Origin: Flavobacteriales bacterium
GTDB lineage: Bacteria > Bacteroidota > Bacteroidia > UBA4408
Length of the DNA stretch: 64,000 bases
Direction: 5' to 3'
Assembly (NCBI GenBank): GCA_040383485.1
Contig: JBEIDK010000002.1
Span: forward strand, 7,766 to 71,765
The stretch's first letter is position 1. Every line of letters begins with the position of its first letter. Under the pieces are notes generated by a model. It made no database searches. It was not told where the DNA came from and saw only the letters and a list, made by a program, of their open reading frames with translations. Positions 2,307 through 54,315 of this stretch are shown here, one piece after another. The translations under genes and the position numbers were made by a program.

Positions 2307-3335
2307 TTAATTCATATCATAAAATCTACTATTATCGCCTCTTCTATTTTTCTTAAATGGATTAAAATCAAATGTAATATATAATTCAAATGTATTATAA
2401 GTTGCTCCAGCAATTTTACTACCTCCCATTTCAACAGAATAATTAGCTCCAACTTCAATTTCTTCAATAAATATTGATAGTGATGCACCAAATTGAGCAA
2501 CAGAAAAACCATCGAAATTATTAAAGTGCTGATTTAGTCCAAATCCAATATTTCCTAAGATAGCTTCTTGATATAAGTCAATTCTAGATTTAGAACCTTG
2601 TTTGGAGAAAGTATTGTAGAAATACAAATAGGAATAATAAGGTAAAAAACCTTGATTATATTTATTGATATCAAATTGAATTCCAGTTTGTAAAGAAATA
2701 AATAAATCTTTAAAATTTGAAGCCTCACTATTAAATGATGTTTCGGGTCTATTAATATGTCTAACATTTGCTCCAAGTAAAATATCAGAATTATCAGCAA
2801 AAAAATCACTTGTATTATAAAAACTAACCCCAGCACCTACATCAAAATAATTTACATTATTGTTGATATTTATAGGATCATTTGAAATTCCTACTATTGA
2901 TCCCGTGAAAGCATTAATTTGGTCTTCAAAAACTAAAGAATTAAAATCTAGATTTGTACTTCCAAAGCCAACAGATACTGATGGATTAAAAATCCATTCT
3001 TCATTAAGTTGGGTTTTATAAATGTAATGTAGATTCGCAGAATTTGATGTATAACCTAACGAACTAATTTGCATTGAATTGACATCAACTGCTAGTGAAA
3101 AATCATGGTTGTCAAAATAATGATTGGCAAAAGCAAATCTATTATCCATTTTACTATTTTGATTAAAACCTTCTGAACTATAAATTATACCTGCTTTTGA
3201 AGAATCTCCAAACCCATAGAAACTAGGATTTGTTGATCCTGGTATCATATTTTGATTTTTATATATATAATCTTGACTAAATGCTATAGTCGAAAATAAT
3301 AGTATTAAAAGTAAAAAGCTGTTGTTCTTTTTCAT
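2307..3335 (-). CDS. PorP/SprF-family type IX secretion system outer-membrane protein (partner of the upstream type-B CTD adhesin)
   Basis: 342 aa with a signal peptide (MKKNNSFLLLILLFSTIAFSQ). The body is beta-barrel-like with alternating aromatic/polar residues and ends in an aromatic-rich strand. It lies 6 nt downstream of a type-B-CTD gene, the usual sprB-sprF arrangement. Sequence is divergent, so the call is partly positional. Confidence 0.65.
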   Translation of the reverse strand: MKKNNSFLLLILLFSTIAFSQDYIYKNQNMIPGSTNPSFYGFGDSSKAGIIYSSEGFNQNSKMDNRFAFANHYFDNHDFSLAVDVNSMQISSLGYTSNSANLHYIYKTQLNEEWIFNPSVSVGFGSTNLDFNSLVFEDQINAFTGSIVGISNDPININNNVNYFDVGAGVSFYNTSDFFADNSDILLGANVRHINRPETSFNSEASNFKDLFISLQTGIQFDINKYNQGFLPYYSYLYFYNTFSKQGSKSRIDLYQEAILGNIGFGLNQHFNNFDGFSVAQFGASLSIFIEEIEVGANYSVEMGGSKIAGATYNTFELYITFDFNPFKKNRRGDNSRFYDMN

Positions 3336-3341
3336 ATTTAA

Positions 3342-6300
3342 TTATTTTACAAGTAGGAATCTACCTTCTTTCTCAATTTTAACATCATTAATAGCAGTGG
3401 CTATAATGTAATATCTATAATTATTATTCATTGGTTCGCTTTGACCTTTTTCAATTCCATTCCAACCCCAATCTGGTCCTAGTAATGCAACTTCAGATTC
3501 GATTTCATAGACTAAGTTACCCCAATTATCATAAATTTGCATTGCGACATCCTTAATACCAAGTAATGAAGGTCTGAAATAATCATTTATACCATCATTA
3601 TTTGGAGTAAATATAGTTGGCAGCATCATTGTTGCTCCACTTCCAATAACTATTGTTTTACTTATCTTTCTTGAACAACCAAATCTATTATAAACAGTTA
3701 AAGTGATTTCATAAATTCCGTTAGTTGTATAGGTATGGAATACGGTTTCAAAATTTTCGCCATTTGAATCTGGTAATAAATCCTCAGGGTTATAAAACAC
3801 TTTGAATGGTGTGTTATCTCCAAAATCCCATACAATATAATCATATTCGGCTGGAATAGCACTCATATCTACTAAGTGAGTTAATTGTATACTTTCATTC
3901 ACAGAATAATAGCCATAATTTTCAAAATCATTTGATGTAAATTCAAAATCTGGTGTAATAATTGCAGTAGACACTCGAATTTCTCGCCAACAATTTTGAC
4001 TATTTCTAACTTTTACAATTCCAAATGGTGTAGTTGGGTTGTTAATTGATAATTCATACATATTATTACCTAAATCAACAAAAGGCACTAAAACATCATT
4101 ATAATAGAATGTTAAGTTTGGATCGAGACTATTTACATTAATTCTAATTTTACCAGGATTATCTTCACATAAATCATCATCCATAGTGATATTTTCAATC
4201 GATAATGCGCTATAATCATAAATGGTAAATAAGTAAGGTATCGTCGAACAACCATTACTGTCTTCAACTGTTAAGTAATATACCCCAGCTCTTAAATTAC
4301 AAATATTAAAATAGTTATTGTTAGCTGGTGGAGGTAATGTTACTAAAGTTTGTAATGATGGATCTAAATACTGTAAAGTAAAATCGGTGTAAATGCCACT
4401 ACCACCAGTAATATTGAAGTTGGCGCATCCTAATACCCCATTACAACTTACATTAGTCGAAGATTGTAACGAAATAATTATTGGCTGAGCTGGTAAAACC
4501 GTGTAACTTACTGTTGGTATTGGGCATCCTATTGCATCGGTTCCAGTTAGCGTGTAAGTTCCTGCCACTAGTCCAGTAATTGTAGTTTGATTTTGTTGGA
4601 AACCATTTGGTCCTGTCCAACGAATAGCATACAGCCCATTAACTGATACTCCACCCACAATGGTTACCGAAATAGCACCATCATTCACATTACTACAAGA
4701 AACATTTGTTATAACTTCATTTGTAATTGAGATAGGAGTTGAAACTCTTATTACACCTGCTTTAACAATTGAACAAGGTTCAGATGTTACTGTATAATTA
4801 TATACTCCAGAAACTAACGGCGTACCAGAAATAATTAATTGTCCTGTAGTTGCAGAAAATACTGCCGTTACTCCGGGAGGTAATCCACTAGACACAATAT
4901 TTGTTGCCCCAATTACATTATAGGTAATAGGTTGAATAGGAGTGTTAAAACTTGGTTGGCATAGCGTTTGATTATCAGTGCCAGCTGCTGATGTTAATAC
5001 TATTCCTACTGCTGTATTTACATTAGAAATAGTAACAAAAATTGTTTTAGGACAACCAGTTGTAGTGATAGGGAAATTAAATACTCCATTTACTAATGGA
5101 TTACCTTGAATAGTGTACACACCAGTTCCAGCATTAAAATTCAACGTTAATCCGTTTGGAAGCGTAGGGGTAATAATTCCCGTCGCTCCACCGCCTATTG
5201 TAAAGCTAATTGGAATAATTGCTGAACTTTGGCAAACCGATTGATTTATACTTCCTGAACCAGTAGTTAGTGTAATTGAGGCTTCAGGTCTAATATCAAA
5301 AGTAATGCTGTAAATTGCTGATGGACCACAAGTGCCTTGAGTAGTTATGGTGTAATTTTGTGCTAAACTTGTAGGACTTGTTGGTGTACCCGAAACGGTT
5401 AAAATACCATTTACAATGTTATAAGTAATTCCTGCTGGTAAAGTTGGGGTAACAGTAATTGTATTCACTCCACCAGATACTAAGAAATTTATAGGATCAA
5501 TAGGTGTATTTTGACATGCTACTTGATTGGTATTTCCAGATAGATATGCTATCGACTGTAAAGGATTCACAGTAATTATTCCTGTAAGTGTATTTCCACA
5601 TGCTGTTGTAGATGATATACTATATGGGAACGTACCACTTTGTGTTGGCGTACCAGAAATAATTCCTGTTGTTGGATTAAATGTAACACCATTTGGTAAA
5701 CCTGTTACTACCATTGTTGCACTAGCCGGAGAAATACTATATTGAATAGGTAATGCAAATGAACTTCCTAAACAAACTGTTGTATTTGGATTTCCAGAAA
5801 CCAAAGTAATTGTAGCGCTTGGATTAATAGCTATATTTCCTGAAGCACTAGATTGACCACAAATTCCAAATGATTCTACTGTATAGGTGAATGAACCAAT
5901 AGTATTAGAAGCTCCAGAAATTGTGATTACATTATTAACTATTGACCATGTAATTCCAGGTGGTTGAGAAGGACTAAATCTAACAATACCTCCAGTTGCA
6001 CCACCACCTAGGTTATAAATGATAGGTTGAATATTCACATTATTACAAACCGATTGATTTATAGTCGCTGGCACCAATGCTATGATACTATCATTTGAAT
6101 TCACAGTAATTGTTCCGCTAAACGTTGAATTACAACCGTTTGTTGAACCTGATGTATTCACTATATAGTTATAAACTCCTGTAACTAATGGTGTTCCAGA
6201 AATTGTAAAGGTGCCTGAAACATAACTTCCACTTAATCCAGCTGGTAAATTTGTAACAAATGCATTAGTTGAAGCCCCTCCAATGGTAAATACAATTGGT

Positions 6301-32126: not shown

Positions 32127-32134
32127 TACTTTTG
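32127..32134 (+). promoter_or_regulatory. candidate -7 box TACTTTTG
   Basis: TAnnTTTG match 19 nt upstream of the ATG at 32154. Confidence 0.4.
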
Positions 32135-32153
32135 TTATTCAATACAATATAGA

Positions 32154-32660
32154 ATGCTTTCTAATTTAATTACCTCAAAAACCAGATTACGCTTATTAGT
32201 GAAGTTTTTCATTAATACCGCAAATGATGGATATTTAAGAGGATTAGCAACTGAAATGCACGAAAACACCAATGCCATCCGCAAAGAACTAAACAATTTG
32301 TCAGATGCAGGGTTTATCATACGAAAGGAACAAGAATCAAAAGTTATTTACAAAGCAAACAAACAACACCCTTTTTTTTCATTATTGCAACAAATTGTGA
32401 GAAAACACATTGGGTTAGACGATATTATTGAATCAATTGTAGATAGAATTGGTTCAATCAGCCGTGTTTATTTAATTGGTGATTACGCAAAAGGGATCGA
32501 TTCCGGCCAAATAGAAGTTGTTCTTGAAGGTGACGTAGTTGATCAATTGTACTTAGCGCAATTGAAACCAAAAATCGAAAAAGAAATCCAAAAAACCATC
32601 ACGTTTCATATTACTAAGTATTATGAAGGCGACGGTGTTTTGGTTTTTCAACAAGAATAA
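32154..32660 (+). CDS. winged-helix (ArsR-like) regulator fused to a degenerate nucleotidyltransferase-like domain
   Basis: 168 aa. The N-terminal wHTH reads TSKTRLRLLVKFFINTANDGYLRGLATEMHENTNAIRKELNNLSDAGFI. The C-terminal VYLIGDYAKGIDSGQIEVVL resembles a minimal NTase strand-turn but lacks the GS/DxD catalytic residues. Confidence 0.5.
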   Translation: MLSNLITSKTRLRLLVKFFINTANDGYLRGLATEMHENTNAIRKELNNLSDAGFIIRKEQESKVIYKANKQHPFFSLLQQIVRKHIGLDDIIESIVDRIGSISRVYLIGDYAKGIDSGQIEVVLEGDVVDQLYLAQLKPKIEKEIQKTITFHITKYYEGDGVLVFQQE

Positions 32661-32730
32661 ATAAACCAAATAGGTTTATAAATTAAATATAGTTAGCCAA
32701 ATAATGGGACTGACCAGGCGAAGCCGTGGA

Positions 32731-32818
32731 GTTAATGAGTCAATTAGTCAATGTGCCAATTAGCCGATGAGTCAATTAGTCAATTAGTTAATGTGTCAAT
32801 TAGCCAATTTGAAGATTT
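32731..32818 (+). repeat. octamer array, ~11 units of G(T/C)CAAT(T/G)(A/T)
   Basis: Units: gttaatga gtcaatta gtcaatgt gccaatta gccgatga gtcaatta gtcaatta gttaatgt gtcaatta gccaattt gaagattt. The period is exactly 8 nt. Confidence 0.9.
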
Positions 32819-32912
32819 GATATCAAATCCTTAGTGAAACTCTGTGAAACAAAAAAAGTGATAAGTTTAAACTTTAAACCTGACCCGAGGCGAAGCTAAA
32901 AAGTTCGAAGCA

Positions 32913-32965
32913 AAACCTAAAACCTGAAACCTGAAACCTGAAACTTGAAACCTGAAACTTGAAAC
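32913..32965 (+). repeat. heptamer tract, 7.5 units of AAAC(C/T)TG, running into the start codon of the next gene
   Basis: Units: AAACCTA AAACCTG x3 AAACTTG AAACCTG AAACTTG AAAC. The TTG of the last full unit (32959) is the only available start for the dehydrogenase ORF. Confidence 0.9.
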
Positions 32966-34236
32966 AAAAAACAAACATAATACTATCCGTAACCGGACTT
33001 GGCTATGTAGGACTACCCTTAGCACTAGAATTTGCTAAGAAATACAAAGTCATTGGTTTTGATATCAACGAAGCTCGGATTGCACTGATGAAGCAAGGTA
33101 TTGATCCTTCTCAAGAATTAGGTTCGGAAGCTTTTGATAATGCCAATATCACGTTTACTTCGGTAGTTGAACCTTTGACGGAGGCCAATTTTCACATTAT
33201 TGGGGTTCCAACCGATATTGATAAAAACAAAGTACCCAATTTAAAACCGTTAATAAGCGCCTCAAAGAGCATCGGTAAAATACTAAAAAAGGGAGATATC
33301 GTTGTATATGAATCAACCGTTTATCCGGGTTGTACCGAAGAAGATTGCATACCTGTTTTAGAAAAATATAGTGGATTAATTGCTGGGGTTGATTTTCAAT
33401 TCGGTTACAGTCCAGAGCGCATTGTGCCTGGCGATAAAGTAAAAACGGTTAGTAAAATATTAAAAATTGTTTCTGGAAACAGTGCCGAAGCTTTGGAACA
33501 CATTTCGGAAGTATACGGCTCTATTATTGAAGCAGGTTTACACAAAGCACCTTCCATCAAAGTTGCAGAAGCTGCTAAAGTGATTGAAAATACGCAACGC
33601 GACATCAATATTTCGTTAATGAATGAATTGGCGATTATTTTTGATAAAATGGATATTGATACCCAAGCGGTTTTGGAAGCTGCCGGAACCAAATGGAATT
33701 TTCACAAATACCAACCCGGTTTAGTGGGCGGCCACTGTATTAGTGTCGATCCGTTTTACTTAATGCACAAAGCGAAAAAATTGGGAATCGACCCGCAAGT
33801 CATTGCTGCTGGAAGACGCGTAAATGATTTTATTCCCACGTTTATTGCTAAAAAAGTCGTTCAAACATTGATCGAGCAAGATAAAAATCCAGGAAAATCC
33901 CGCGTGTTGGTGATGGGAGTTACCTTTAAAGAAGAAGTATCCGACATTCGAAATTCTAAAGTAATCGATTTGATAAAGGAACTAAAAGACTATTCTGTTG
34001 CAGTCGATGTCATTGATCCTAATGCAGACCCATTAGAACTGAAACAACATTATAATATTAATCTTTCACCCAACCCAACAGGGAAATACGACAGTATTGT
34101 TGTAGCAGTAGGACATCAAGCGTATCGCAACATGACACCATTAGAAATCGAAAAATTATCAAACGGCTCAGTATATCTATTCGACATCAAAGGCGTCCTA
34201 AATAAAAAAGACTTCAAAAATTATTGGAGATTGTAG
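32959..34236 (+). CDS. nucleotide-sugar (UDP-N-acetyl-hexosamine) dehydrogenase, TviB/WbpO/CapL family
   Basis: 425 aa. Contains GLGYVGLPLA (NAD binding), YSPERIVPGD and the catalytic GGHCISVDP. The start must be TTG 32959, because an in-frame TGA lies at 32953 and there is no ATG before the Rossmann motif. Confidence 0.85.
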   Translation: MKQKTNIILSVTGLGYVGLPLALEFAKKYKVIGFDINEARIALMKQGIDPSQELGSEAFDNANITFTSVVEPLTEANFHIIGVPTDIDKNKVPNLKPLISASKSIGKILKKGDIVVYESTVYPGCTEEDCIPVLEKYSGLIAGVDFQFGYSPERIVPGDKVKTVSKILKIVSGNSAEALEHISEVYGSIIEAGLHKAPSIKVAEAAKVIENTQRDINISLMNELAIIFDKMDIDTQAVLEAAGTKWNFHKYQPGLVGGHCISVDPFYLMHKAKKLGIDPQVIAAGRRVNDFIPTFIAKKVVQTLIEQDKNPGKSRVLVMGVTFKEEVSDIRNSKVIDLIKELKDYSVAVDVIDPNADPLELKQHYNINLSPNPTGKYDSIVVAVGHQAYRNMTPLEIEKLSNGSVYLFDIKGVLNKKDFKNYWRL

Positions 34237-34283
34237 GCAATGTGTCAATTAGCCAATTAGCCGATGAGTCAATTTGAAAATTT
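34236..34283 (+). repeat. octamer array (6 units) starting on the stop codon
   Basis: Units: ggcaatgt gtcaatta gccaatta gccgatga gtcaattt gaaaattt. The first G is the last base of the TAG stop (34234-36). Confidence 0.85.
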
Positions 34284-34326
34284 GTTATTCAATAGTATAA
34301 AAAACAAACCACAATAAATAAAAACC

Positions 34327-34352
34327 TTGGCGCCCTTGCGTCTTAGCGGCAA
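34327..34352 (+). promoter_or_regulatory. GC-rich conserved box / potential stem-loop 6 nt upstream of the wzz ATG
   Basis: TTGGCGCCCTTGCGTCTTAGCGGCAA. A near-identical box lies at 50327..50351 before rmlD. The ends (TTGxCGC / GCGGCAA) are complementary. Confidence 0.45.
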
Positions 34353-34357
34353 TACAT

Positions 34358-35419
34358 ATGGAAACACCAAACGACGAAATTACCCTAAAAGAACTTATCC
34401 TTAAAGTTAAAGAGTGGTATACCTTTTTGCTTTCTCAATGGAAAACAATTGCATTAGCAGGAATCATAGGAGCCCTATTAGGTTTGGGCTATTCTTTTTA
34501 TAAAAAACCAGTGTATACTGCTACACTTACCTATGCACTAGAAGACGGAAAGTCAAGTAGTGGTTTAGGAGGAGCATTAGGACTAGCCAGTTCATTTGGA
34601 TTGGATTTAGGAGGATCTTCAGGTGGAGCCTTTTCGGGAGCCAATTTAATGGAATTGTTTAAATCTCGTGCTATGGTAGAGCAAACTTTATTAGCGCCAG
34701 TAACACAAAACAACAAAACCATTTCCTTAGCCGAAATGTACATTCAAGATAAAAAGTGGCGTGAGAAATGGGGAAAAAAGGCAAAGTTGAAGGTTATAAA
34801 ATTCTTACCAAATACAGATAGAGCCAAATTCACCCGAGTGCAAGACAGTATTTTTGGTGTGATTTATAACGATTTATCTAAAAACGCTTTAACAGTAGAC
34901 CAAAAAGATAAAAAAGTAGCCATTGGAACCATCACTCTAAAAGGCACTAACGAATACTTTGCACAGCAATTTACGTTAGCATTAACCAAAACGGTTACCG
35001 ATTTTTACATCGAAACCAAAAGCAAACGTGCCAAAGAAAACATGGACATTTTAGTACGTCAAACCGATTCCATTCGTGCCGAGTTAAACGGTGCCATAAC
35101 CGGAGTAGCCGTAGCCAACGACAATACATTCGGACTGAATCCTGCGCTAAATGTAAAACGAGTACCATCAGCCAGACGACAAGTAGACGTTCAAGCGAAC
35201 ACCGCCATTTTAACTGAAATCGTAAAACAAGCCGAATTAGCTAAAGTAACCCTACGTAAAGAAACCCCATTAATTCAAATCATCGACCAACCCATTTTAC
35301 CTTTACCAAAAGAAAAATTCGGAAAAGTAAAAGGAATCCTTTTAGGCGGCATCTTAGCTGGGTTTTTAACTGTTTTAGGATTGATTGTAAGAAGAATTTT
35401 TAAAGAGTTAAGTATTTAA
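34358..35419 (+). CDS. Wzz-like chain-length determinant (polysaccharide co-polymerase without kinase domain)
   Basis: 353 aa. N-terminal TM helix (WKTIALAGIIGALLGLGYSFY), a long coiled periplasmic region and a C-terminal TM helix (GILLGGILAGFLTVLGLIV). Confidence 0.7.
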   Translation: METPNDEITLKELILKVKEWYTFLLSQWKTIALAGIIGALLGLGYSFYKKPVYTATLTYALEDGKSSSGLGGALGLASSFGLDLGGSSGGAFSGANLMELFKSRAMVEQTLLAPVTQNNKTISLAEMYIQDKKWREKWGKKAKLKVIKFLPNTDRAKFTRVQDSIFGVIYNDLSKNALTVDQKDKKVAIGTITLKGTNEYFAQQFTLALTKTVTDFYIETKSKRAKENMDILVRQTDSIRAELNGAITGVAVANDNTFGLNPALNVKRVPSARRQVDVQANTAILTEIVKQAELAKVTLRKETPLIQIIDQPILPLPKEKFGKVKGILLGGILAGFLTVLGLIVRRIFKELSI

Positions 35420-35462
35420 TGTGCCAATTAGTCAATTTGCCAATTAGACAATGTACCAATTT
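35415..35462 (+). repeat. octamer array (6 units) overlapping the wzz stop codon
   Basis: Units: tttaatgt gccaatta gtcaattt gccaatta gacaatgt accaattt. The TAA stop is at 35417-19. Confidence 0.85.
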
Positions 35463-35659
35463 GACTCGAGGCACAGCCGAACACAACAAACCTGAAACTT
35501 GAAACTTTACCCAAGGACCCAACTGGTTAAGTATATAAAATTATACAAGATATATAAAGGACTTTTTACAGATATAAGCATAAAAACTATACGAAAAAAC
35601 AATATGTTTGTGTTTTAAAACATAAAATGACACAAAGAATTTCTTATTTAACACAATTA

Positions 35660-36200
35660 CAGCAATGGATTGACAGACCGCAGCACAGCGCCTTTATTAT
35701 ATTACCTTATATGACTTATATGTTAAAAATTAGTCAATGAGTCAATTAGACAATGTGCCAATTTGAAAATTCGTCATTCAATAGTATAAAAGGAATTGTT
35801 ACCTTCGAGAACCTCAGTCAACAGCGAGAGCCTCAGTCAAAAGACAATTAGACTTGTACTCACTTATATTTCTTAAATGAACTTAAACTAAGCGCAGCGC
35901 CTTTCTTACAATTAACTTATATGACTTATATGTTAAAAATTAGCCAATGAGTCAATTAGACAATATGACAATTAGCCGATTAGTCAATGTGCCGATTAGG
36001 AAATGTGACAATTTAAAGATTCAGTATTCATCAGTATTAATGCAATTGTTGACTTCGAGTGCCTCAGTCAACAAAGAGTGCCTCAGTCAAAAGACAATTA
36101 GACTTATACTCACTTATATGCCTTATATGGTTTAAAATTAGCCGATGAGTCAATTAGACAATATGACAATTTGCCAATTAGGAAATGTGCCAATTTGACT
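35660..36200 (+). repeat. ~2.5 tandem copies of a ~200-210-nt composite intergenic repeat
   Basis: The core CTTATATGACTTATATG lies at 35706 and 35916, with the variant CTTATATGCCTTATATG at 36113. Each is followed by an octamer array (35733-72, 35943-36022, 36141-96). The duplicated segments 35790-35900 and 36040-36150 both read ...cttcgag.gcctcagtcaaca..gag.gcctcagtcaaaagacaattagactt.tactcacttatat... Confidence 0.85.
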
Positions 36201-36221
36201 CGAGGCACAGCCGAACACAAC

Positions 36222-36300
36222 AAACCTGAAACTTGAAACTTGCAACTTTACCCAAGGCAAAGCCAAACAGTGCGAAGCAAAACCTGAAACCCGAAACCTT
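36222..36300 (+). repeat. two heptamer AAACYTG tracts flanking a GGCAAAGCC box, ending 17 nt before the ATG
   Basis: 36222-49: AAACCTG AAACTTG AAACTTG CAACTTT. 36280-300: AAACCTG AAACCCG AAACCTT. Confidence 0.8.
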
Positions 36301-36316
36301 AAACAAAAAAACTAAA

Positions 36317-36733
36317 ATGAAAAAAGCCATCATAGTCTCTGGATATTTCAACCCCATCCACAAAGGCCATGTTGAATATTTCAACAATGCCAAAGCGTTG
36401 GGCGATTACCTTATTGTAATTGTCAATAACGACAAACAACGCGCCTTGAAAGGCAGTAAAGAATTCCAACTAGAAGACGAACGTGTGTTTATCGTGTCCA
36501 ATATCAAAAGCGTAGACCAGGTATTTCTTTCCATTGATGAAGACCGTACCGTTTGTACAACTATACAACACATCCACGAACAATTGCACAAAGACTACCA
36601 GCTGGCTTTTGCCAATGGTGGCGACCAAAACAATAACTCCATACCCGAAGCTCCGATTTGTGAAAAATTAGGTATTGCATTATTAGATGGTTTGGGGGAT
36701 AAAATTCAATCGTCGAGTTGGTTGTTGAAATAA
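36317..36733 (+). CDS. cytidylyl/adenylyltransferase-family protein (HxGH nucleotidyltransferase; TagD/RfaE-domain-II-like)
   Basis: Track ORF 36233..36733 starts inside the heptamer repeats. The ATG at 36317 gives MKKAIIVSGYFNPIHKGHVEYF (HxGH motif) and a 138-aa product typical of this family. Confidence 0.7.
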   Translation: MKKAIIVSGYFNPIHKGHVEYFNNAKALGDYLIVIVNNDKQRALKGSKEFQLEDERVFIVSNIKSVDQVFLSIDEDRTVCTTIQHIHEQLHKDYQLAFANGGDQNNNSIPEAPICEKLGIALLDGLGDKIQSSSWLLK

Positions 36734-53739: not shown

Positions 53740-54200
53740 ACATGTCTTTAAACCAAGCAAAGCGCCTTTCATACATTACCTTACATGACTTATATGTAAA
53801 AAATTAGCCAATGAGTCAATGTAAAAATAAAACATAGTGAAACTTCGTGAAAACGTTGCGAAACATTGTGTTGCAAAAAGAGTAATGAGTTAAGAGTAAT
53901 GAGTTAGGAGTAATGAGTTAGGAGTAATGAGTGAAAATTTCAAAACTTACTTGTACTCAAAAAAGTGCAGCGCCTTACTTATTATTACCTTATATGACTT
54001 ATATGTTAAAAATTAGCCAATGAGTCAATAAAAATAAAACATTGTGAAGCTTCGTGAAAACGTTGCGAAACATTGTGTTACAAAAAGAGTAATGAGTTAA
54101 GAGTAATGAGTTAAGAGTAACTTACATGTCCTTAAACTAAGCACAGCTACTTCATTACATTACCTTACATGACTTAAATGGTTAAAATTAGCAAATAAAC
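53740..54200 (+). repeat. three tandem copies of the 175-210-nt composite intergenic repeat
   Basis: Cores lie at 53780 (CTTACATGACTTATATG), 53989 (CTTATATGACTTATATG) and 54164 (CTTACATGACTTAAATG). Each carries ...aaaattagccaatgagtcaat...aaaacattgtgaaacttcgtgaaaacgttgcgaaacattgtgttacaaaaagag plus a 14-mer minisatellite. Confidence 0.9.
53879..53934 (+). repeat. 14-nt minisatellite (A/G)GAGTAATGAGTTA x4; second block x2.5 at 54086..54121
   Basis: Units: agagtaatgagtta agagtaatgagtta ggagtaatgagtta ggagtaatgagtga. Copy number differs between adjacent composite copies. Confidence 0.9.
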
Positions 54201-54245
54201 CAATTTGAAGATTTGACCCAAGGCACATCCGAAAGGAGCGAAGCT

Positions 54246-54315
54246 AAACTTGAAACTTGAAACTTGAAACTTGAAACTTGAAACCTGAAACTTGAAACCT
54301 GAAACTTAAAACCAA
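54246..54315 (+). repeat. heptamer tract, ~10 units of AAAC(T/C)TG
   Basis: Units: AAACTTG x5, AAACCTG, AAACTTG, AAACCTG, AAACTTA, AAACCAA. It ends 10 nt from the stop of the convergent minus-strand gene. Confidence 0.9.

Follow-up and report, generated by a model that had tools for sequence, protein, structure and literature searches.

A length-variable AAAC(C/T)TG heptamer array anchored on the TTG start of a TviB-type dehydrogenase gene in a Flavobacteriales bacterium

Heptamer repeats, which are over-represented in the intergenic DNA of bacteria, have no settled role. The locus described here raises the question of what a tandem heptamer might be doing when it runs directly into a gene and appears to supply its start codon. 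The locus lies in a 64,000-nt stretch of DNA from a Flavobacteriales bacterium (GenBank assembly GCA_040383485.1, contig JBEIDK010000002.1, positions 7,766 to 71,765), which we call the window and number from its first base. In it, a tract of AAAC(C/T)TG (AAACYTG) units at 32913-32965, on the + strand, abuts the open reading frame (ORF) of a nucleotide-sugar dehydrogenase, tviB. The tract is a real heptamer array, anchored at the start codon, that changes by whole units between close relatives and adds no structure to the RNA.

Tandem Repeats Finder describes 32913-32965 as a period-7 repeat of 7.6 copies with 91% matches and the consensus AAACCTG. This bears out a first-pass annotation, made from the letters of the window, that had counted 7.5 AAAC(C/T)TG units running into the ORF. 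The units are, in order, AAACCTA, three copies of AAACCTG, AAACTTG, AAACCTG, AAACTTG, and a final AAAC. A window scan for three AAACYTG units with at most two mismatches gave 16 matches, all on the + strand, compared with a mean of 0.01 in shuffled sequences. These matches make up five arrays (32913-32965, 35488-35507, 36222-36248, 36280-36304, and 54246-54312). We rejected an assembly artefact as the source of the tract, since independent assemblies have matching architecture. The pattern scan found no opposed array to partner any of the five in the window, and a role for 32913-32965 as a hairpin arm was rejected on this ground.

Every unit junction carries a TGA, made of T6 and G7 of one unit and A1 of the next. 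The first-pass annotation had noticed this codon but had confined it to CCTGA units, a restriction that does not hold. It was right that the period of 7 rotates TGA through all three frames: the tract has seven sense-strand stops, split 2/2/3 by frame. It had also described the tract as rich in stops on the sense strand and free of them on the antisense strand. The former is so, but the antisense strand has one TAG, contributed by the degenerate first unit AAACCTA. Similarly, minus-strand ORFs had been said to read through such tracts. One does at 36178-36393, across the 36222 and 36280 tracts, but no minus-strand ORF of at least 60 amino acids in the window's ORF list spans 32913-32965.

The dehydrogenase frame reads ...ET*NLKQKTNIILSVTGLGYVG across the tract, and inspection of this frame places a TGA at 32953-32955, two codons 5' of the putative start. 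Between this TGA and the Rossmann motif GLGYVG, the sole ATG, GTG, or TTG is a TTG formed by the array's last complete unit (32959-32961, + strand), 12 codons before the first Gly. The coding sequence from there to 34236 specifies 425 amino acids and is of the TviB/WbpO type, a nucleotide-sugar (UDP-GlcNAc/GalNAc) 6-dehydrogenase by profile scores. It passes TIGR03026, the nucleotide-sugar dehydrogenase subfamily model (373 bits; cutoff, 190), and scores 474 bits with NCBIfam NF011729 (TviB), under the equivalog cutoff of 592. By these scores, "TviB-type" is a fair description and not an equivalog call. JGI names the relatives UDP-N-acetyl-D-galactosamine dehydrogenase, and an exact-protein look-up of the 425-residue product found no record. 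The locus is one for surface polysaccharide, with Wza-like, UpxY/NusG-like, Wzz-like, rml, and transferase genes alongside.

Orthologous loci were drawn from species-representative genomes. TTG stands at the equivalent position in 11 orthologues with 85 to 89% protein identity, and 9 of them have no other start in the open frame. The bases before it differ (aaac, aaat, or aacc), as do the codons after it (KQKTN, KPENN, KTENN, or ETENN), and the upstream regions of the 12 TTG-start sequences contain at least three unrelated repeat families. Public gene callers give most relatives 425 amino acids and the N-terminus MKQKTN or MKPENN. TTG 32959, which the first-pass annotation had considered the only plausible start, is thus the sole canonical candidate and is invariant in the window and 11 orthologues. 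As a prediction from sequence, this start is well supported. An in-frame ATG 15 codons upstream, with a called product of 440 amino acids, occurs at loci L121 and L134 and in proteins P0002, P0003, and P0006. At L134 its frame is open only because an inserted unit mutated from CCTG to CCCG, which removed the TGA. An upstream ATG start was rejected for the window, as the in-frame upstream ATG is found only in relatives such as L134. Other equally close relatives have an ATG at -7, -10, -15, or -18 codons, with unrelated N-termini. These varied positions show that the start codon of the dehydrogenase gene has turned over repeatedly. Among tviB orthologues L121 to L156, the TTG variant (at -12 codons) and the ATG variants each adjoin a different short-repeat family in the leader.

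The heptamer also provides starts elsewhere. We scanned one genome per species for four perfect AAACYTG units and obtained at least 120 loci. Five or six further genes, spread over three phyla, have no possible start other than the TTG of the last or second-to-last unit, and an in-frame TGA lies two codons upstream of that TTG. They include genes for a NusG/UpxY-type protein in a member of the Cyclobacteriaceae (L022; NusG domain from residue 7, first ATG at codon 36), a GAPDH in a member of the Bacteroidota (L048; domain from residue 7, first ATG at codon 43), and a SAM hydroxide adenosyltransferase in a member of the Pyrinomonadaceae (L066; SAM_HAT_N from residue 6, first ATG at codon 21). 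A lactonase with a signal peptide in F. potami (L042) has no ATG in its first 60 codons, and an ABC ATPase of the Verrucomicrobiota (L053) also has an in-array TTG start. A second Pyrinomonadaceae gene, with no Pfam match and its first ATG at codon 29 (L044), is a weaker case. The start unit is TTG in every such case, whereas only 34% of all units are TTG (chance, about 5 x 10^-4 for seven cases). This argues that in-array TTGs really are used as start codons.

Translation might instead start downstream of the tract, at the near-cognate AUH codon ATA 32977. The A-rich stretch AAAAAACAAAC (32966-32976, + strand), which is coding here as codons 2 to 6 (KQKTN), combines with the array's final AAAC (32962-32965) to read AAACAAAAAACAAAC, the usual 3' flank of such arrays. 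As an A-rich pre-start flank, AAACAAAAAACAAAC would be typical ahead of ATA 32977. That codon also has A at -3, -6, and -13, which fits the initiation determinants of Flavobacterium johnsoniae (see below) better than the tract does, and residues 2 to 5 vary among the orthologues (KQKT, KPEN, KTEN, or ETEN). However, the codon drifts among ATA, ATC, and ATT in the orthologues, as a synonymous Ile codon would, whereas TTG is kept in 12 of 12 sequences. In the other genes, moreover, the in-array TTG is the sole option, with Pfam domains beginning at residue 6 or 7. A start at ATA 32977 is most improbable.

To what extent does the array vary at this one site? Nine TTG-start orthologues (L121 to L126 and L129 to L131) have just AAAC-TTG-AAAC, or 1.6 units, and L132 has a degenerate version. 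There are 2.6 units in L204, 3.6 in L201, L203, and L134, 4.6 in L202, and 7.6 in the window. Loci L201 to L204 were recovered by a start-anchored pattern scan of metagenome contigs. The same pattern had no match in genome contigs, and a flank-anchored pattern, TTCGAAGCAAAACC-N{27,57}-TTGAAAC..., had none in metagenome contigs. The L202 tviB product is 96% identical to that of the window, and the leader architecture is shared. L204 has the same leader as L202, and L201 and L203 have a different upstream repeat family. In a three-way alignment, the gaps at the array relative to the window are 21 nt (L202) and 35 nt (L204), both multiples of 7. Around the start, L202 and L204 differ by about 11 mismatches in about 870 columns (about 98.7% identity), with only two internal indels: AAACCTGAAACTTG (14 nt) and a 16-nt double octamer. 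Other orthologous AAACYTG arrays differ between Flavobacterium species as well (9 versus 4, 11 versus 6, and 5 versus 7 units). Therefore, unit number, which the first-pass annotation had proposed comparing across strains, is not invariant but varies between close lineages. The outcome is a natural series of 1.6, 2.6, 3.6, 4.6, and 7.6 units at one anchored site, ahead of one conserved gene, with the start inside the repeat.

Some related observations concern this variation. A second heptamer family upstream of tviB (CGAACAA/GAACAAC) differs by two units between L201 and L203. Logan contigs of public DNA and RNA runs end within 32913-32965. In runs X1 to X3, the summed contig word depth across 32897-32977 is 2400 to 3650, compared with 20 to 45 in the flanks. 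AAACYTG words are about 100 times commoner than the dehydrogenase gene in the freshwater metagenomes that hold it, a depth to which other organisms may contribute.

Initiation that is independent of a Shine-Dalgarno (SD) sequence is usual in Bacteroidota. The window start fits this pattern, with no SD sequence in positions -25 to -1 (AAACCTGAAACTTGAAACCTGAAAC) and no + strand ATG in 32792-32958, the 167 nt before the start. The 151-nt leader around the tract folds at -14.2 kcal/mol (z = -0.33), and all but 5 nt of the tract are unpaired in the minimum free energy (MFE) structure. When 1 to 12 units were placed there in silico, the MFE stayed at -24.1 to -25.1 kcal/mol, and the mean unpaired probability from -20 to +10 was predicted to rise from 0.61 to 0.78. 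In F. johnsoniae, adenines at 0, -3, -6, -12, and -13 favor initiation (PMC6847099). The window start has only A-3 (0, -6, and -13 are T, and -12 is G), and the A triplets of the repeat sit at -2 to -4, -9 to -11, and -16 to -18. The first-pass annotation had imagined an unstructured landing pad for ribosomes whose unit number tunes expression. Low structure and an AUG-free leader are consistent with a landing pad, but of the favored adenines only A-3 is there. As for tuning, unit number does vary between lineages, but its effect appears only as the predicted change in accessibility. The periodicity keeps -1 to -20 identical in all arrays of at least three units, so copy number could act only by changing how far the start lies from the GC-rich box and leader core upstream or how many repeated sites there are. 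That copy number tunes expression is unproven, and any such effect would, by these predictions, be weak. Nothing shows the array to be an on/off switch.

The start is separated from the upstream small regulator-like gene by a spacer of 298 nt. No + strand TAnnTTTG (-7-like) box is present in 32135-32958. The nearest one on that strand, 32127-32134, is ahead of that upstream gene, a 168-codon ORF (32154-32660, + strand) whose product has a winged-helix-like N-terminus and no Pfam or NCBIfam match. The box is not enriched in the window (117 matches versus 115 expected). A scan for sigma-70 promoters and terminators did no better than on shuffled sequences and gave no terminator-like site in the spacer. 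Because the spacer has neither a -7-like box nor a terminator, the tract is probably intercistronic RNA. Rfam gave no gathering-score match in the whole window and none at E <= 1 in 32500-36500.

We also asked where such arrays lie in other genomes. Among the loci listed by the family scan, to which all counts in this paragraph refer, about a third are from Flavobacteriaceae, mostly soil or freshwater Flavobacterium. The others include Acidobacteriota, Desulfobacterales (Desulfonema magnum), Bacteroidales, Kiritimatiellia/Verrucomicrobiota, Planctomycetota, and cyanobacteria. Placement was tested with ATG-initiated ORFs of at least 100 codons downstream, for which 31 Flavobacteriaceae arrays were suitable. 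An ORF starts within 50 nt on the sense strand in 10 cases, compared with 1 in the mirrored direction (binomial p = 0.012), and within 100 nt the counts are 13 and 3. The 3' flank in 37 Flavobacteriaceae arrays has the consensus AAACAAAAAA. An opposed array, when present in this family, is upstream only (6 versus 0).

The nearest known relative of the array is the TAACTGA direct repeat of marine Beggiatoaceae, cyanobacteria, and five Bacteroidetes (MacGregor 2015, PMC4679880). TAACTGA repeats are mostly intergenic and forward, lie within 1 to 43 nt of a start codon, place forward stops in all frames while leaving the reverse strand translatable, and have no SD sequence before the start. Strains differ mostly by 7-nt indels, and the same Flavobacteriia spacers contain other heptamers; function was left open among binding of the ribosome, S1, or Csp and irrelevance (PMC4679880). 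The array at 32913-32965 likewise has at least two 7-nt copies head to tail, is intergenic and forward, ends on the start codon itself, has forward stops in three frames, a reverse strand open apart from one stop, and no SD sequence, and varies by 7-nt indels. Both units contain AAC and YTGA, and the geometry in which stop and start overlap at CTGA exists in TAACTGA too. However, the unit here is AAAC(C/T)TG and not TAACTGA, its last copy is itself the TTG start (an arrangement that recurs in several phyla), and a full length series is available at one orthologous site. On these features of its sequence, the array is in the TAACTGA repeat class but is a separate family. A literature search on the AAACYTG repeat sequence itself found no bacterial paper. 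The array joins a class of heptamer repeats that is known in bacteria but still lacks an explanation.

Other comparisons are more distant. Cyanobacterial STRR sequences and the GGGAATC/GGGGAYT arrays of Xanthomonas and Nostoc (Rehm et al. 2015, PMC4692102) are also heptamer arrays scattered between genes, with units particular to each lineage and a copy number that varies, often in opposed pairs that can form hairpins. Opposed AAACYTG pairs of this hairpin type are seen in other genomes. However, those units are G-rich, and the ones in Xanthomonas and Nostoc can form quadruplexes (PMC4692102), whereas AAACYTG is A-rich and unstructured and its window arrays have no opposed partner. The heptanucleotide simple sequence repeat of hmw1 and hmw2 in Haemophilus influenzae sits in a mapped promoter and 5' untranslated region, where its number sets expression and varies within hosts (PMC8262952, PMC12721329). 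The array here resembles it in being a 7-nt repeat upstream of a surface-related gene with unit number varying by slippage, but any promoter context or effect on expression is hypothetical here, and like arrays precede housekeeping genes elsewhere. Finally, SD-independent initiation regions of Bacteroidota (Baez et al. 2019, PMC6847099; Jha et al. 2021, PMC7797042) share the lack of an SD sequence, low predicted structure, A-3, and no upstream AUG. Unlike them (PMC6847099), this one has a non-AUG start and is without adenines at -6, -12, and -13.

We consider it probable, though by no wide measure, that the tract is a slippage-made heptamer array, a member of the STRR/TAACTGA class whose anchor is an AAAC-TTG-AAAC start and which serves as an unstructured, stop-insulated leader. 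It would have arisen by replication slippage from an older AAAC-TTG-AAAC context, itself 1.6 units. With its 3' end fixed at the start, it has grown and shrunk on its upstream side by whole 7-nt units. With TGA at the junctions and a period that rotates it, no frame can enter from upstream, and the TTG of the last unit alone opens the gene. The tract would then be a translation initiation region of about 50 nt of unstructured, A-rich, AUG-free RNA that lacks an SD sequence, with SD-independent initiation at UUG. Its main role may be that of a structure-free spacer, holding the start clear of the GC-rich box and the conserved leader core that lie upstream. Changes in copy number might cause at most a modest, graded change in output. 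A switch is not expected because copy number alters neither the reading frame nor -1 to -20. We infer that the array functions as an SD-independent leader insulated by stops, or is tolerated as one.

Several points weigh against such a role. A single adenine determinant (A-3) with a non-AUG start is not obviously a strong landing pad. Unrelated repeats (CGTAAAT, CCCTTTACCC-like, and GAACAAC) occupy the same place in orthologues, which means that the exact AAACYTG heptamer is not required. The longest array in the window (54246) faces a convergent gene, about half of the listed Flavobacteriaceae arrays adjoin no start, and beyond this family the placement bias is weak (16 versus 11 among the loci listed). 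Furthermore, selection need not be invoked for the orientation of arrays and their proximity to starts, given that A-rich leaders are the likely seeds for arrays. A near-neutral origin is a serious possibility.

Other explanations can be weighed against this leader role. Following the hmw model, the array could be a contingency or rheostat locus, at which frequent changes of unit number within a population set the level of the dehydrogenase and hence the composition of capsule or O-antigen. Whole-unit differences between near-identical segments and across lineages are what this would predict, the UpxY/NusG-like, Wza-like, and Wzz-like genes mark a surface-polysaccharide locus, and predicted start accessibility rises slightly with unit number. 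However, added units leave the frame and the -1 to -20 context unchanged, and no promoter spacing is involved, there being no + strand TAnnTTTG box in 32135-32958. Like arrays also precede housekeeping genes elsewhere, such as that for GAPDH, and, reading by eye only, ORFs with purE-like and ilvC-like first residues. We regard a rheostat as unlikely. The units might instead form a row of binding sites for a single-strand-binding factor (bS1, a cold-shock protein, or another regulator), so that AAACYUG-led genes would make up a posttranscriptional regulon. MacGregor proposed as much for TAACTGA repeats (PMC4679880), which share AAC and YTGA with AAACYTG. A common ligand would also suit a heptamer found again in distant phyla, GC-rich Acidobacteriota and Verrucomicrobiota among them, and the Flavobacteriaceae arrays listed are polar, with a shared 3' flank (AAACAAAAAA), an inverted partner upstream only (6 versus 0), and an orientation bias of 10 to 1. 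However, the factors named are candidates only, the repeats in orthologous leaders are unrelated, many arrays are remote from starts or form hairpin arms, and the downstream genes have no evident shared function. This makes a binding-site row rather improbable.

It is also conceivable that the array is a remnant, an arm or half-site left by a mosaic element that moves or recombines, and that its position at a start codon is incidental. The candidates would be intergenic cassettes with heptamer or octamer arms or a composite of octamers, box, and heptamers that recurs in this locus. The order octamers, GACYCRAGGC...GCGAAGC box, and heptamers is indeed repeated at 32730-32965, 35418-35507, 36151-36304, and 54196-54312. 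The leader cores of L202 and L204 are 100% identical even though the 3' halves of their tviB genes are only about 50 to 60% identical, which implies a recombination breakpoint. At L115, an ORF for a four-helix bundle resembling 23S rRNA intervening sequence (IVS) proteins lies between opposed arrays, and k-mers of the tract are about 100-fold deeper than its flanks in metagenomes. On the other hand, orthologues with neither box nor array have the AAAC-TTG-AAAC anchor and the coding sequence after it, the length series is tied to the start codon as in-place slippage would have it, and the window arrays are all on the + strand with no opposed partner and no cassette gene. A mosaic remnant is therefore quite unlikely.

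A bolder idea arises from the stops within the array. The TTG at 32945 opens a five-codon mini-ORF (TTG AAA CCT GAA ACT TGA; 32945-32962, + strand, read from the sequence) whose TGA, 32960-32962, overlaps the TTG start at 32959 as TTGA. In general, each YTG opens YTG AAA CYT GAA ACY TGA, and the stop overlaps the YTG two units on, as YTGA. Units 3, 5, and 7 form one such chain in the window. AAACYUG arrays could thus be a cross-phylum, SD-less initiation module, a termination and reinitiation relay leading to the last UUG. If so, ribosomes loaded anywhere on the array would be passed to the last UUG, each unit offering a near-cognate YUG followed by AAA, and copy number, together with its odd or even parity, would set how many are delivered. 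The AAC...YTGA core common to AAACYTG and TAACTGA would then reflect this mechanism. We regard the relay as a speculative reading with little chance of being correct.

The copy-number series and the recurrent supply of TTG by the repeat are useful new facts. They mean that such arrays can create, fix, or replace a start codon, as in the tviB orthologues, which begin at TTG or at ATG in four other positions. In gene finding, TTG starts within repeats have to be allowed, and antisense ORFs that run through AAACYTG arrays are artefacts. Genetics, reporters, and ribosome profiling exist for F. johnsoniae. The landing-pad, spacer, and relay ideas are directly testable there with the natural unit series.

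The other arrays in the window, all on the + strand, have diverse settings. A short one of 2.9 units (35488-35507) lies inside an 897-nt spacer between the wzz-like gene and a cytidylyltransferase-family gene (35420-36316), which contains composite repeats and three AAACYTG arrays in all. The corresponding spacer in L202 (6643-6991) measures about 350 nt and lacks AAACYTG arrays. The other two arrays in the 897-nt spacer (36222-36304) precede ATG 36317 of the cytidylyltransferase-family gene, and Tandem Repeats Finder gives 3.9 units for 36222-36248 and 3.6 for 36280-36304. The first-pass annotation had listed all these tracts, and all are present, but the end it gave, 36300, is 16 nt and not 17 nt before that ATG. 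A longest-ORF rule begins the cytidylyltransferase-family gene (36233-36733) at a TTG inside the 36222 array. This ORF reads through the degenerate 36280 tract (CCCG, CCTT) because the tract is stop-free in two of three sense frames. Profile matches begin at residue 2 of the ATG 36317 product, which favors that ATG. The longest AAACYTG array in the window, of 9.6 units (54246-54312), is at a convergent junction with no + strand start after it.

In other genomes, arrays can be opposed. At L003, L004, L120, and other Flavobacterium loci, (CARGTTT)n followed by (AAACYTG)n brackets short spacers, often with a terminator-like hairpin, and at L120 the opposed arrays point outward to the flanking sequence on either side. 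The reverse arrangement was not seen among the listed Flavobacteriaceae loci. The four-helix-bundle ORF of L115, from a metagenome-assembled genome of the Kiritimatiellae, lies between AAACTTG-type arrays (interval, 557 to 718 nt; arrays starting at 2258 to 2328). Its product has the motif SI..N[IL]AEG, typical of 23S rRNA intervening-sequence proteins (from motif reading only). No such IVS-protein-like cassette gene is found in the window. A similar gene (5033-5419) is on the 8-kb locus L087, which has two arrays, of 8 and 11 units.

Upstream of the tract, the leader has a definite order, all on the + strand. The box GGGACTGACCAGGCGAAGCCGTGGAG (32706-32731) is just 3' of the winged helix-turn-helix-like gene and is kept in most orthologous loci. 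It is followed by an array of about 10 octamers of the CAATKWGY type (32730-32809; Tandem Repeats Finder), whose length varies between relatives (the 16-nt indel, two units, between L202 and L204). The leader core (32804-32896) runs from CCAATTTGAAGATTTGA to the GACCCGAGGCGAAGC box and contains GTGAAAC words. It matches L202 and L204 at 87 of 93 positions each, and these two match each other at 94 of 94. In conservation the core equals or exceeds the coding sequence, and it could have a regulatory function or be a module that was exchanged recently. The identity of about 98.7% between L202 and L204 extends from -400 to about +490 and then gives way to 30 to 67 mismatches per 100 columns. This sharp divergence in the 3' part of tviB marks a recombination breakpoint about 490 nt into the dehydrogenase gene.

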